Shown piece by piece: positions 7,964-13,460 of a stretch of DNA of 15,658 nt. Within the stretch, counting starts at the first letter, position 1; each line of letters begins with the position of its first letter. This stretch comes from a virus, in IMG/VR virus record IMGVR_UViG_3300044508_000090. One strand, 5' to 3'. Made by a program: the position numbers and the translations under genes. The notes beneath the pieces are model-generated. The model searched no databases and was not told the origin of the DNA. It saw nothing but the letters and a program-made list of their open reading frames with translations.

Positions 7964-8004
7964 CCTTACAATTATATAATAGCAAATGTGTATCACTTTG
8001 TCAA
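7964..8004 (-). promoter_or_regulatory. Consensus sigma70-type promoter (family copy 1) driving the 7377-7946 gene
   Basis: On the - strand: AT-rich UP-like TTAAAAGTGA, TTGACA (7999-8004), 17-nt spacer, extended -10 TGcTATTAT(ATAAT), conserved leader ATTGTAAGG. Confidence 0.7.
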
Positions 8005-8060
8005 TCACTTTTAAGAAAATAAATAGACCTCATGATTATTTTTATTTTTAGAATATTTGA

Positions 8061-8088
8061 TTGACAAAAAGATATACAGTGCTATGAT
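8061..8088 (+). promoter_or_regulatory. Consensus sigma70-type promoter, + strand, left end of cassette A
   Basis: TTGACA (8061-8066), 16-nt spacer ...GATATACAGTGC, TATGAT (8083-8088), then leader TTAAAGTGTGGG. A GAGGAG RBS and the 5-codon mini-ORF ATG GTC AAA CGA AGA TAG (8119-8136) follow. Confidence 0.65.
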
Positions 8089-8344
8089 TAAAGTGTGGGC
8101 AGCAGAGGAGACAAGAAAATGGTCAAACGAAGATAGGGGACATAGGCCCCCTGGGGGAGGGGGCGGGGGAGAGGGACTCCCGGCGAAGCCGGGTGGGGAA
8201 GGGGGTAGTGTGTTTTTAGTTCCTAAAAACTGTGAACAGACTTCCCCAGGCCCCGTGGCCCCCGCGTTCGCCGGGTCTAGGCTGCCTCCCCCTCCCTTGT
8301 TTTTGGCCCCCCGCCGCGTCATCGTGTTTCCGTCATCACTCCCT

Positions 8345-8384
8345 CCTCACAATTTAATAGTAGCATTGTGTATCAGAATGTCAA
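8345..8384 (-). promoter_or_regulatory. Consensus sigma70-type promoter, - strand, right end of cassette A
   Basis: - strand TTGACA (8379-8384), 16-nt spacer, TACTAT, leader TTAAATTGTGAGGAGGG. Then the 5-codon mini-ORF ATG ACG GAA ACA CGA TGA (8319-8336, - strand). Confidence 0.65.
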
Positions 8385-8401
8385 TCACTTTATTTGAACT
8401 A

Positions 8402-9028
8402 TTATTTGAAGGTGACCACCGCGCCATACCGTGGGCAATTTTCCCAGCCGGCCCATTCCATCGCCTTAAAGGTCACAGGGTGGAAGGTGTTAGGTTGACC
8501 TGAGCGACTGGGGTTATTCGCCCATCGCAGGGCAGCCGCCAGGGAGTTGAACCACCGAACGCGGAAGGAGGTTTCCGTCTTACCGCTGCCGCTCCAGCGG
8601 CGGGTCACCACAGCCACGAACCCGAAGCGGCGGGCGTTGAACACTTCATCACGGCCGAAGGCTTCCGCCATTCGTTGTTCCGCAGCACTAAACCCCTTTT
8701 CAGCCGCTTTACGGGAGGCCTCCAGGGTCGCCTCTCGCTCCATCTCTTTTTTCGCCTCTACTTCTTTTTGGAGGCGGGGGGCCATCGCACCTTTTGACGC
8801 GAGGTAGGCGTCATAGGCGCGATTCATGTTCGCCTTGAAGGCCTCTGCCTCAGGCCCCCAAGTCTCCCCCATCCAGCGGACTTGAAAGGAGGCATCATCC
8901 ATCTCGCACCCACATTTTGAGGTGAGCTTCATGCGAGATTCAGGGTCTGAAAAGAACCGCCCACAGTGGGGGCAGTACACATTGGAGAGTTCCAGGGTCT
9001 CACCACTTACCGTCTTTACGTATCCCAT
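8402..9028 (-). CDS. Hypothetical protein (208 aa) with N-terminal zinc-ribbon-like CPHCG...CGC motif
   Basis: The real start is the ATG at 9026-9028 (MGYVKTVSG), downstream of a family promoter. The track start is a TTG inside the promoter. Confidence 0.7.
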   Translation of the reverse strand: MGYVKTVSGETLELSNVYCPHCGRFFSDPESRMKLTSKCGCEMDDASFQVRWMGETWGPEAEAFKANMNRAYDAYLASKGAMAPRLQKEVEAKKEMEREATLEASRKAAEKGFSAAEQRMAEAFGRDEVFNARRFGFVAVVTRRWSGSGKTETSFRVRWFNSLAAALRWANNPSRSGQPNTFHPVTFKAMEWAGWENCPRYGAVVTFK

Positions 9029-9049
9029 TTTTCTCTCCTTCTCTTGCTG

Positions 9050-9089
9050 CCTACAATTATAAGATAGCATCTGTGTATCAAAATGTCAA
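9050..9089 (-). promoter_or_regulatory. Consensus sigma70-type promoter (family copy) driving the 8402-9028 gene
   Basis: - strand TTAAAAGTGATTGACA (-35 at 9084-9089), 17-nt spacer, TGcTATCTTATAAT, leader TGTAGGCAG, RBS AGAAGGAGAG. Confidence 0.65.
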
Positions 9090-9159
9090 TCACTTTTAAA
9101 GAAATAAATTATCGGCAGGAAAATAAAAAGGAGGGTGCAGAATCGATAGCAGAGTACCT

Positions 9160-9393
9160 TTATTTTGTAGCGTTTGTGAGAATCACCATATCAATGATCA
9201 TAATAATATGTAATACGATCCACATTACCCCCATCGAAGACTGATCACTGAGGAGGCTTATACTACAACCCACCATAAGTAAGAAAGCGAAGAATCCCCT
9301 GAACCCTCTTCCCAAGTAAAGGTATCCAAGCCCCGTCCAGAGTATGTTTAGAACTATAGCTACTGCAACACTCTTGTCTTTCGCTTTTCCCAT
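9160..9393 (-). CDS. Small membrane protein (77 aa, two predicted TM helices; GLGYLYLG motif weakly TM2-domain-like)
   Basis: Start ATG at 9391-9393 (MGKAKDK) with RBS AAAGGAGCAGG. Hydrophobic segments AVAIVLNILWTGLGYLYLG and MGVMWIVLHIIMIIDMVIL. Could be a holin or superinfection-exclusion-type protein (inference only). Confidence 0.55.
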   Translation of the reverse strand: MGKAKDKSVAVAIVLNILWTGLGYLYLGRGFRGFFAFLLMVGCSISLLSDQSSMGVMWIVLHIIMIIDMVILTNATK

Positions 9394-9419
9394 TTTCCTG
9401 CTCCTTTTGCCTTCGGATG

Positions 9420-9441
9420 GTGAGGGCAAATTTGCCCTCAC
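9420..9441. promoter_or_regulatory. Perfect 22-bp palindrome GTGAGGGCAAATTTGCCCTCAC, copy 1, ~25 nt upstream of the small membrane protein start
   Basis: Seen directly. No U-tract follows on either strand, so not an intrinsic terminator. A near-identical copy (1 mismatch) lies at 14424-14445 upstream of the P-loop kinase gene. Confidence 0.55.
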
Positions 9442-9448
9442 GATGTGT

Positions 9449-12224: not shown

Positions 12225-12295
12225 TCAGAAAAAGATAACCTTACAAAAATAGTGGTTAGGCTCCTAAGAAGCGCTAACCACCATTTTGGGAGGAG

Positions 12296-12481
12296 TTAGA
12301 GGGGGGCGTATTCCTCCTTGGCCAGCTCTCTGGCCCACCCACGGGCCTCCTCACGGGTTTTGGAGGGATAGAGGTTGGTGATGAAGTTCCCCGAAGGGAA
12401 CCTCACGATTTGGACCACGGTGTGGTCCTCAATGATAGAGATTGTGTTTTGTGGTTTGGAGGAGATAATCTCGATAGACAT
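12296..12481 (-). CDS. Small protein (61 aa), paralogue of the 12531-12701 product
   Basis: Strong RBS AAGGAGGGCGACC then ATG at 12481. Shares ...SK.....II....HTVV..VR..SG.......KTREEAR.WA+ELA with its upstream neighbour. Confidence 0.6.
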   Translation of the reverse strand: MSIEIISSKPQNTISIIEDHTVVQIVRFPSGNFITNLYPSKTREEARGWARELAKEEYAPL

Positions 12482-12493
12482 GGTCGCCCTCCT

Positions 12494-12528
12494 TTAGGGT
12501 TTGTTGGGGTCTATTAGGGTTTGTTAGG
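12494..12528. repeat. Direct repeat TTAGGGTTTGTTRGG x2 (12494-12508, 12514-12528) between the two paralogous small genes
   Basis: Seen directly. Lies just upstream of the RBS of the 12296-12481 gene, on the - strand. Confidence 0.8.
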
Positions 12529-12530
12529 AG

Positions 12531-12701
12531 TTAGTGGCTAGCTAGCTCCTTGGCCCACTTACGGGCCTCCTCACGGGTTTTGAAGGCCCAGGATTTGTTG
12601 TAGCCCCTCCCTGAGGAGAGGCGCACCGCCAGAACGACGGTGTGGTTGGACTGAATGATAATGGTCTGATGAGTTTTTGAGGTGAGAATTTCAGCCAACA
12701 T
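12531..12701 (-). CDS. Small protein (56 aa), paralogue of the 12296-12481 product
   Basis: The real start is the ATG at 12699-12701 (MLAEILTSKTHQT), downstream of a family promoter. The track ORF starts inside the promoter. Confidence 0.6.
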   Translation of the reverse strand: MLAEILTSKTHQTIIIQSNHTVVLAVRLSSGRGYNKSWAFKTREEARKWAKELASH

Positions 12702-12740
12702 GTCTCTCTCCTTTTTGTCTTTTTTGTTTCCCTCTCTCGC

Positions 12741-12781
12741 CCTCACAATTATATAATAGCAAGTATGTATCACTTTGTCAA
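12741..12781 (-). promoter_or_regulatory. Consensus sigma70-type promoter (family copy) driving the two-gene small-paralogue operon
   Basis: - strand TTAAAAGTGATTGACA (-35 at 12776-12781), 17-nt spacer, TGcTATTATATAAT, leader TGTGAGGGCGAGAGAGG. A/T-rich UP-like sequence lies upstream. Confidence 0.65.
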
Positions 12782-12948
12782 TCACTTTTAATAGAAAATA
12801 AAGTAGGGGATGAAAAATAAAAGGCAGGAGGGACCCCCTAGATCAAAAAGACTCCCAGACACCCCTACTAACTTTTCCTATTGTCAACGGCAGCAGAATG
12901 GTGTAGAGAAGGGGTGTGAGTCTTCTTGTTCTAAGGAGTTTGTCCGTA

Positions 12949-13090
12949 CTCTACCTAGCCTAACGTCATCGGCTAGGTAGAGTGTTTCCTCCCTTGGCTC
13001 TGGAACAACGAAGACTCTCTTTATGGCCGGCCAACCCTTTTGGAGTCAACCCTGAGCAGGGCTCCTATGGTGAGAGAGGGGTTGGCCGGC
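12949..13090. other. Structured noncoding segment: 12-bp perfect hairpin CTCTACCTAGCC/GGCTAGGTAGAG (12949-12982), and 13-bp perfect long-range inverted repeat GGCCGGCCAACCC/GGGTTGGCCGGCC (13025-13037 / 13078-13090) enclosing a 40-nt loop
   Basis: Seen directly. No ORF or promoter was identified here. Function unknown (RNA structure, recombination site or terminator-like). Confidence 0.4.
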
Positions 13091-13103
13091 CAACCTGTAC
13101 AAA

Positions 13104-13140
13104 AAGAAAAAGCCCAGGAGATCATCCCGGGCTTTTTTAA
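13104..13140. terminator. Bidirectional intrinsic terminator
   Basis: Hairpin GCCCAGG-AGATCAT-CCCGGGC (13112-13132, one mismatch) flanked by AAAAAGAAAAA on the left and TTTTTT on the right. This gives a U-tract on either strand. Confidence 0.6.
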
Positions 13141-13425
13141 GAAGCAGGAGCGCTGGGGCATTGAACCCTCTTTGTCCATATGCAGGCCCATGCGTCCTTA
13201 GGCCTACTCAGCGCCCCATCTCAGGCGAAAGGGTAGCCGCTCGCTCAACGACATCCCTTTTTACCGGCTGGTTAGCGACTGGAACTTTTACCCTACCCAA
13301 TTTTCTGCCTCATCAGCAGGCGGGATTCGAACCCGCAATCGGGAGTTTCCAGACGTGCCCACCAACCAGGCACGTAAGATCCCCAACCGTCACCCTACCT
13401 CCCCTCCCCTCTTTCCCTGCCTCAC
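13105..13425 (-). ncRNA. Candidate ~320-nt noncoding RNA bounded by a family promoter and the bidirectional terminator. Contains a canonical tRNA T-arm GCGGGTTCGAATCCCGC but no complete cloverleaf
   Basis: Promoter -10 at 13433-13438, terminator at ~13105. No ORF with an RBS (the + strand 101-aa track ORF is P-rich nonsense). The - strand reading of 13320-13336 is GCGGG-TTCGAAT-CCCGC. Neither the 48 nt nor the ~85 nt upstream fold into D and anticodon arms with a matching acceptor stem. Confidence 0.35.
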
Positions 13426-13460
13426 AATTATATAGTAGCAAGCGCGTATCACTTTGTCAA
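13420..13460 (-). promoter_or_regulatory. Consensus sigma70-type promoter (family copy) with no protein gene downstream; drives the candidate ncRNA
   Basis: - strand TTGACA (13455-13460), 17-nt spacer, TGcTACTATATAAT, leader TGTGAGGCAGGGAAAG. Confidence 0.65.

Follow-up and report, generated by a model that had tools for sequence, protein, structure and literature searches.

A repeated promoter-like cassette with a conserved spacer octamer, facing small genes and G-rich non-coding elements in a viral contig

Results

The viral record IMGVR_UViG_3300044508_000090, from an uncultivated phage, is an entire JGI contig of 15,658 nt, which we analysed at its full length (the window). Between positions 7964 and 13469, it carries a promoter-like cassette, about 50 bp long, in 11 copies, eight on the minus strand and three on the plus strand, all within 5.5 kb. 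Every copy proposed by an earlier sequence-only reading of the window was found at its position, and shuffled sequences give none: the strict pattern TTGACA-N12-16-TGCTAYWWT recovers seven copies, compared with 0.00 expected from 200 shuffles. When the window is scanned with a generic sigma70 model, all 11 copies fall within the 12 best matches, each with a TG before its -10 hexamer; the 12th match, TTGTCA at 11431 (+), has no TG at this place.

We aligned the 11 copies and found that GATTGACA, GATA, TGCTA, the last T of the -10 hexamer and a T-G-T near the predicted start are invariant. The TTGACA -35 hexamer and the TGC that extends the -10 hexamer occur in all copies, and the spacer is 16 nt long in four and 17 nt long in seven, as the sequence-only reading had described. 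Its remaining motifs are less strict than proposed. The spacer motif GATAYACA is exact in eight copies, replaced by GATACGCG in two and by GATACATA in one; the -10 hexamer, proposed as TAYWAT, keeps a fixed TA and last T and otherwise has the looser form TA(T/C)NNT; and the conserved initial transcribed sequence, AATTGT(A/G)AG, is found downstream of eight copies, with the other three deviating. AAAGTGA lies upstream in six copies. On both sides of the cassette, the identity of the flanks is only 30-60%, and the conserved unit therefore extends from about -45 to +12. All 11 copies are intergenic, and each is directed towards a gene or RNA that lies downstream.

Six copies precede start codons, each with a Shine-Dalgarno sequence and an ATG, located 24-30 nt after the -10 hexamer in five cases and 51 nt after it in one; their ribosome-binding sites are purine-rich. 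Copy m7964 (7964..8013, minus strand) has its -35 hexamer at 8004-7999, a 17-nt spacer containing GATACACA, the TGC and a TATTAT -10 hexamer at 7981-7976, and leads to a gene at 7377-7946 (-) whose ATG is 29 nt after the -10. The ATG of the gene at 8402-9031 (-) lies at the same distance behind m9050 (9049..9098, minus strand; -35 at 9089-9084, -10 TATCTT at 9066-9061). A minus-strand operon, composed of 10343-10534, 9970-10329, 9449-9958 (NUDIX) and 9160-9393, follows m10552 (10551..10600, minus strand; -35 at 10591-10586, -10 TATTCT), and the genes at 11019-11378 and 10592-10987 (CxxCxxCC), also on the minus strand, follow m11398 (11397..11446, minus strand; -35 at 11437-11432, -10 TATCTT). 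On the plus strand, p11520 (11514..11562; -35 at 11523-11528, 16-nt spacer, -10 TACTAT) stands before a DUF5658 gene at 11575-11874. Finally, m12741 (12741..12790, minus strand; -35 at 12781-12776, spacer with GATACATA, -10 TATTAT) leads to two small genes at 12531-12701 and 12296-12481 (-), tandem paralogues of 56-61 aa with a common C-terminal KTREEAR-WA-ELA motif.

The protein of gene 7377-7946 has a confident predicted model (predicted local distance difference test, pLDDT, 90.5) without a known fold; it has no Pfam family and one marginal PHROG match of unknown function (E 0.006), and a tblastn search of cultured phages found no relative. The open reading frames (ORFs) at 7377-7985, 8402-9070, 11019-11441 and 12531-12785 begin with LLLYNC, MLSYNC, VIDKLIH and VIDKVIH, and are thus translations of the promoter itself, as the sequence-only reading had recognized.

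The other five copies face non-coding, G-rich, structured sequence, and the proposal that the cassette is copied in front of small genes consequently holds for six of the 11. Four of the five form two inward-facing pairs, each enclosing a non-coding, GC-rich element of about 240 bp. In the first pair, p8058 (8052..8100, plus strand; -35 at 8061-8066, 16-nt spacer with GATATACA, -10 TATGAT at 8083-8088), which is divergent from m7964, faces m8342 (8345..8393, minus strand; -35 at 8384-8379, 16-nt spacer, -10 TACTAT at 8362-8357) across element 1 (8101..8344). In the second, p11900 (11894..11942, plus strand; -35 at 11903-11908, 16-nt spacer, -10 TACTAT) faces m12184 (12184..12233, minus strand; -35 at 12224-12219, 17-nt spacer with GATACGCG, -10 TATTAT) across element 2 (11943..12183), a paralogue of element 1. 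The remaining copy, m13420 (13420..13469, minus strand; -35 at 13460-13455, spacer with GATACGCG, -10 TACTAT), would drive a predicted structured non-coding transcript of about 320 nt (13107..13419, minus strand) with a G-rich 5′ end.

The cassette is conserved in relatives of this phage, in line with the conservation test that the sequence-only reading had proposed. Two other uncultivated phage contigs have the same architecture before homologous genes: L037, which represents the same phage as L019 and has seven copies, and L039, with six. The homologues of the 7377-7946 protein have 62% (L037) and 51% (L039) amino-acid identity to it, and the same promoter type precedes both. Gene 12296-12481 has a homologue in L037 with 60% identity (36% to 12531-12701), directly behind a promoter copy. 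These distant relatives have only two promoter-plus-first-gene units in common with the window, and the neighbouring genes all differ; conservation alongside the promoter class is confined to 7377-7946 and 12296-12481/12531-12701. All seven L037 copies are upstream of genes. Four of the L039 copies point at called genes and a fifth has none called directly behind it; the sixth stands some 70 nt ahead of a transfer-messenger RNA (tmRNA) gene at 12362-12733 (-), identified at 149 bits with the tag ANDNAFEQPLAQAA, within an apparently gene-free 1.3 kb. Huge phages are known to carry tmRNAs (PMC7162821).

Together, the window (11), L037 (7) and L039 (6) provide 24 copies from three lineages. The -35 TTGAC is present in 24 of 24, as are A2 and T6 of the -10 hexamer, whose positions 3-5 vary. 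A2 and T6 are the positions on which sigma70-type polymerases depend most, and their invariance beside free positions 3-5 is the pattern of sigma70 dependence. In its sequence, the cassette has all the features of a strong sigma70-type promoter with an extended -10. We consider it likely that the 11 repeats work as promoters of a single phage class, recognised most probably by the host's primary-sigma (sigma70-type) polymerase. Architecture, copy number, placement relative to genes and conservation across the lineages are observed directly; from these we infer promoter activity, use of the host polymerase, the start site and early timing, as well as the operator role that is proposed below.

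Several observations weigh against this assignment. The 24/24 invariance is partly imposed by the search patterns that retrieved the L037 and L039 copies. The TGC before the -10 hexamer is present in all 11 window copies and all seven L037 copies, and in none of the L039 copies, which lack both the GAT before the -35 and the TG of the extended -10. In a further contig, L041, the gene is present without an octamer promoter. The octamer itself has no dyad symmetry. Lastly, no close relative of the contig was found, and a megablast search of GenBank phages with the whole window returned no match.

When IMG/VR, JGI metagenomes and GTDB genomes were scanned for the promoter pattern, only single chance matches appeared, and a looser three-lineage pattern gave single-copy chance matches among the IMG/VR matches listed. 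There are no copies in about 110 kb of control loci, including contigs related to the window through its vault-like protein. The relatives of that protein in L026-L029 and L033-L036 (40-68% identity) lie in contigs without the cassette, so the vault-like protein says little about this part of the window.

If read by the host polymerase, each copy would act as a self-contained expression cassette. An A/T-rich upstream tract (often AAAAGTGA) is followed by TTGACA, the 16/17-nt spacer, the TGC of an extended -10, TAnnnT and an A/T-rich discriminator, and transcription would start at about the G of TTGTRAGG. Six copies would launch mRNAs with short leaders, their 5′ untranslated regions being about 17-23 nt long (about 44 nt in one), for small, mostly unknown genes. 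Five would launch G-rich non-coding transcripts, of which one would be the terminated RNA of about 320 nt with a transfer RNA (tRNA)-like module; the other four copies would transcribe the two paralogous ~240-bp elements from both sides.

Alternatively, the cassette may serve a polymerase, sigma factor or sigma-appropriation system that the phage itself encodes, whose true recognition sequence would be the entire ~50 bp, with the spacer octamer and the start region included. Such a factor would account for conservation well past both hexamers, for an octamer at a fixed position relative to the hexamers in three lineages, and for L039, which keeps the octamer though its -10 has weakened to CATACT and the TG is gone. 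However, TTGAC is perfect, the 16-18 nt spacing is canonical and A2/T6 are fixed in the 24 copies, and the bases separating the -35 from the octamer are randomised. We detected no polymerase or sigma factor among the 20 window proteins, and early genes have to be read before any phage protein exists, unless the factor is injected with the DNA. We regard a phage-specific polymerase or sigma factor as improbable.

We now consider the spacer octamer, which distinguishes the cassette from a plain near-consensus promoter. Its sequence is GAT(A/G)N(A/G)C(A/G), usually GATAYACA, located 3-4 nt after the -35 hexamer and 4-6 nt before the -10 (about -25 to -18). Across the three lineages, positions 1-3 (GAT) are present in all 24 copies and the C at position 7 in 23, and the 3-4 nt that separate the octamer from the -35 vary, with six forms seen in the window and six in L039. 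When L039 was searched for GATAYACR without constraint, seven sites appeared, six of them in this promoter context, a result that is independent of the bias from promoter search patterns. In an unrelated phage contig, L006 (IMGVR_UViG_3300008117_000664) / L011, a comparable array contains seven copies of TTGACAG-N13-TG(C/T)TATAAT in 14 kb, six of them TGCTATAAT; there the hexamers are kept and the spacer is not. The existence of this second array makes it reasonable to call the window's array typical of phage early regions, as the sequence-only reading did.

Because the octamer is conserved beside randomised bases, it should have a function beyond sigma70 recognition. The octamer thus appears to be under selection apart from sigma70 recognition, and descent alone does not account for it. 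Consequently, the sequence-only description of a near-consensus sigma70 promoter is too narrow: the cassette is more than this, as its spacer is conserved across lineages in a way that sigma70 recognition leaves unexplained.

Our leading guess is that the octamer is the operator of a shared regulator; recognition by the polymerase or an effect on DNA shape would be the alternative role. A regulator bound to the octamer, between the -35 and -10 hexamers, would occlude the polymerase and switch the whole set of promoters together. The octamer also recurs without a promoter in two minus-strand arrays with a 12-bp phase, one at 6113-6144 with the order GCTATACA-N4-GATATACA-N4-GATACACG and one at 6248-6267 with the order GATATACA-N4-GATATACG. 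These arrays (6113-6267) are candidates for operator-only sites. By eye, a LexA box was rejected: ATACAG resembles an SOS half-site, but has no CTGT partner at the needed spacing.

We next describe the two convergent modules, each composed of an element and its two facing promoters. Modules 1 and 2 align over their whole length with a mean column identity of 85%. Read from either side, the RNA-like strand of element 1 is rich in G, and a central hairpin is present at 8195-8254 (element 1) and at 12035-12094 (element 2). Both strands fold better than shuffled sequences (z-scores of -2.0 to -4.1), and the two copies differ by five compensatory pairs on each strand, although covariation between two sequences cannot tell RNA from DNA structure, nor one strand from the other. 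At the tip of the central hairpin, about 40 nt have opposite orientations in the two elements, with 34/40 positions identical in the inverted orientation compared with 26/40 in the direct one. A terminator hairpin of -22.9 kcal/mol lies 21 nt upstream of m12184.

Relatives of the elements were not found by blastn against all collected loci, 18-mer scans of IMG/VR gave chance matches only, and Rfam assigned no family to them, with just weak microRNA-type noise. The ORFs of the elements differ between the copies and, by eye, the conserved nucleotides fall in different frames; protein coding is therefore rejected. A whole-module palindrome is likewise rejected, the inner part being 56-57% self-complementary, where shuffled sequences average 52% and reach 57% at most. 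Both elements carry a 5-codon mini-ORF with a GGAGG site at the same relative position, MTETR* at 8319-8336 (-) and MMKTR* at 12159-12176 (-), at the 5′ end of their minus-strand transcripts; these may be leader peptides or accidental.

The convergent modules are candidates either for overlapping sense/antisense structured RNAs or for R-loop-primed origins. As transcription-activated replication origins, their inward G-rich RNAs would form R-loops on the C-rich template and prime bidirectional synthesis; ColE1 RNA II, T4 ori(uvsY) and ori(34) and mitochondrial CSBII are G-rich R-loop primers. Over the first 120 nt, the four module transcripts have a G content of 0.39-0.48 and 4-9 G-runs, compared with 0.22-0.34 and 0-2 G-runs for the six coding transcripts. 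The symmetric inward-facing layout with a central hairpin and the local maxima of cumulative GC skew near 8250-8400 and 12900-13200 would also suit an origin. However, GC skew over 15 kb is confounded by gene orientation, and the solitary m13420 transcript falls in the same G and G-run ranges, yet resembles a discrete terminated RNA. The five compensatory pairs per strand suit RNA and DNA hairpins equally. Further, no initiator, primase or helicase gene adjoins the modules, and two origins 3.8 kb apart would be unusual. We therefore give the origin hypothesis little weight.

The arrangement of the copies also bears on recombination. The repeats might be mainly recombination or mobility sequences, either shuffling cassettes like the promoter-early stem-loop (PeSL) cassettes of T4-type phages or terminal inverted repeats like those of miniature inverted-repeat transposable elements (MITEs), with promoter activity secondary. 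The convergent pairs do form inverted repeats of about 45 nt (terminal arms of 45-48 nt) round ~240-bp elements, in two copies. The two modules also combine different promoter subtypes: the right-hand promoter of module 2 has a 17-nt spacer with GATACGCG, unlike that of module 1 with its 16-nt spacer, and the break is near the -10. The presence of only promoter-plus-first-gene units, amid different neighbours, in L037 and L039 points the same way. Evidence for cassette-mediated shuffling is thus circumstantial.

Other observations weigh against this reading. Folding energies of the 60-nt cores range from -4.2 to -10.3 kcal/mol (z-scores of -1.41 to +2.00 against shuffles), and the cores have no significant hairpin. 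Intergenic hairpins within 90 nt upstream are found at three of the 11 copies, m12184 (-22.9), m12741 (-12.3) and m13420 (-12.6); the best upstream hairpin of m8342 (-14.0) is in coding sequence, the other seven copies have -4.0 or weaker, and random 90-nt windows have a mean of -11.6. Inspected by eye, the module ends have no consistent target-site duplication, a CTTA duplication occurring at module 2 and none at module 1. The inverted arms are identical to the seven solitary promoters, which are placed precisely before genes or RNAs. Moreover, the invariant and variable positions suit polymerase recognition rather than recombination homology, and no recombinase is present in the window. That recombination is the main function of the repeats seems to us quite unlikely.

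The predicted m13420 transcript has a minimum free energy of -141.7 kcal/mol (z-score of -3.96) and ends at an intrinsic terminator with a 13-bp stem (13137-13107). It contains a tRNA-like module at 13269-13365 (-), composed of a T-arm (GCGGGTTCGAATCCCGC) and another hairpin, with a long stem that closes it. The Rfam family YrlA (RF02553) matches the transcript at 28.5 bits (E 0.006 in a 7.8-kb search), below its gathering score of 69, and none of the 20 proteins of the 15.7-kb contig matches TROVE (Ro60). A tmRNA or tRNA was rejected, with nothing found by Rfam or by ARAGORN at default settings; at a relaxed threshold, ARAGORN calls a mismatched 92-nt 'tRNA-Thr', and the same setting also makes calls inside coding regions. 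Next to this transcript, a further ~290 nt at 12810-13100 (-) is apparently non-coding and lies between terminator-like hairpins at 13137-13107 and 12840-12825. With strong local hairpins of its own, such as GGCCGGCCAACC...GGTTGGCCGGCC, it may be a second RNA, produced by read-through or from its own promoter.

The surrounding regions of the window (122-5960 and 13608-14372) encode a major-vault-protein homologue (848 aa; MVP shoulder, Vault_3), an RLIG1-type RNA ligase, a calcineurin-like phosphoesterase, a deoxynucleoside-monophosphate-kinase-like protein and an AAA_33/zeta-toxin-like kinase. Together they look like an RNA-repair or ribonucleoprotein gene set, adjacent to several candidate non-coding RNAs. 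Homologues of the vault-like protein number in the thousands among bacteria and phages, with 67-68% identity at best, and its relatives occur in huge-phage genomes and in Myxococcota. Phage homologues of vault proteins have been reported (bioRxiv 10.1101/2023.11.10.566534).

Outside the array, a stretch of about 1.1 kb (5900-7000) has no convincing gene and three over-represented motifs. TTCGAAGAACCC has 11 matches with up to two mismatches compared with 1.8 expected, six of them at 5908-6181 and the others at 4350-5140. TGGCACG occurs 11 times in the window compared with 1.3 expected, eight times within 6367-6995, in part as inverted pairs. The third motif is the GATATACA of the tandem arrays. 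G-rich blocks of ACCCGGGGGAGGGGTGGGGG, present in three copies, resemble part of element 1. This interval may be a regulatory hub or an origin. In L039, TGGCACGGAG(G/A) comes after the promoters at 7783, 9140, 15902 and 5499 (four of six copies), where it overlaps the ribosome-binding site. It is again the TGGCACG motif, and may point to a further regulatory element common to the phage group. Elsewhere, a 27-nt sequence containing a near-perfect palindrome, GTGAGGGCAAATTTGCCCTCAC, lies at 9418-9444 and 14422-14448, with 96% identity between the two, in short intergenic gaps of minus-strand operons, and is likely a shared attenuator or processing hairpin.

Discussion

Lytic phages use arrays of strong host-type promoters to seize expression within minutes of infection, and the array itself is therefore expected: it is probably an ordinary phage early-promoter family of known kind, of which the octamer and the convergent modules are the unusual aspects. 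An octamer that persists across phages with proteins only 50-62% identical points to a common control device on all early promoters. Nearly half of the promoters (5/11) would serve G-rich non-coding transcripts, and the same contig encodes a vault homologue, an RNA ligase and kinases. If these RNAs are real, they would add to the few known structured RNAs encoded by phages and offer a defined starting point for learning what they do. At about 50 bp, the cassette would also make a compact and portable expression unit.

A broader reading joins both unusual aspects. The octamer would be the operator or specificity element of a factor common to a clade of large phages, which would control a regulon of host-type promoters as one, and the modules would be new bidirectionally transcribed elements, possibly R-loop-primed origins or paired sense/antisense structured RNAs, perhaps partners of the neighbouring vault-protein and RNA-repair genes. 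We offer this combination tentatively and think it has perhaps a modest chance of being correct.

Finally, we compare the window with known systems. T4-type PeSL cassettes contain repeated near-consensus sigma70 promoters, an A/T-rich tract, a Shine-Dalgarno sequence and start, and small ORFan genes, together with a stem-loop that lies within or beside the promoter, usually between the -35 and -10 or overlapping the -10 (Arbiol et al. 2010, PMC2839356; Comeau et al. 2014, PMC4122927). The window's cassette resembles their promoter half, with a near-consensus TTGACA-N17-TATAAT-like core, A/T-rich sequence upstream and, in six of 11 copies, a Shine-Dalgarno sequence and start downstream; its copies are crowded among small ORFan genes, as promoter-plus-gene units in differing neighbourhoods. 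It differs in that its spacer holds a conserved, non-palindromic octamer and that five copies drive non-coding sequence. The sequence-only analogy with PeSL cassettes consequently stands for the promoter half and not for the defining stem-loop, which is missing from the cores and has an intergenic upstream counterpart at only three copies.

The m13420 transcript is YrlA-like in its canonical T-arm, its long stem formed from distal segments and its weak RF02553 match, but its score is far under the gathering score and the contig has no Ro60/TROVE gene. Overlapping complementary transcripts from convergent promoters are made by the pAD1 par locus and by ColE1, each as RNA I and RNA II, and there, as in the modules, the promoters face each other a few hundred bp apart around a central hairpin. 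Unlike these RNA loci, the modules have no conserved toxin ORF, no U-tracts in the hairpin and no evident replicon context, and both promoters of each module are of the same strong type.

Operators located between the -35 and -10 hexamers exist, including the P22 Arc site at Pant and MerR-type sites. Like the octamer, they are conserved spacer sequences, and they control the polymerase's access. Compared with them, the octamer is a direct repeat instead of a dyad, no regulator was identified, and the cassette's spacer has the optimal 16/17 nt, in contrast to the 19-20 nt of MerR-type promoters.

The early-promoter families of T4, T5, T7 (A1-A3) and SPO1 are read by the host sigma70 polymerase. 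They consist of many near-identical strong promoters with A/T-rich upstream sequence, consensus hexamers, often an extended -10 and some downstream conservation, and the cassette does likewise. A counterpart among the contigs we compared, the L006 array, has an unconstrained spacer; in contrast, the octamer of the window's cassette is conserved in 24 promoters, among phages whose shared proteins are 50-62% identical, and it also occurs in promoter-less phased arrays.

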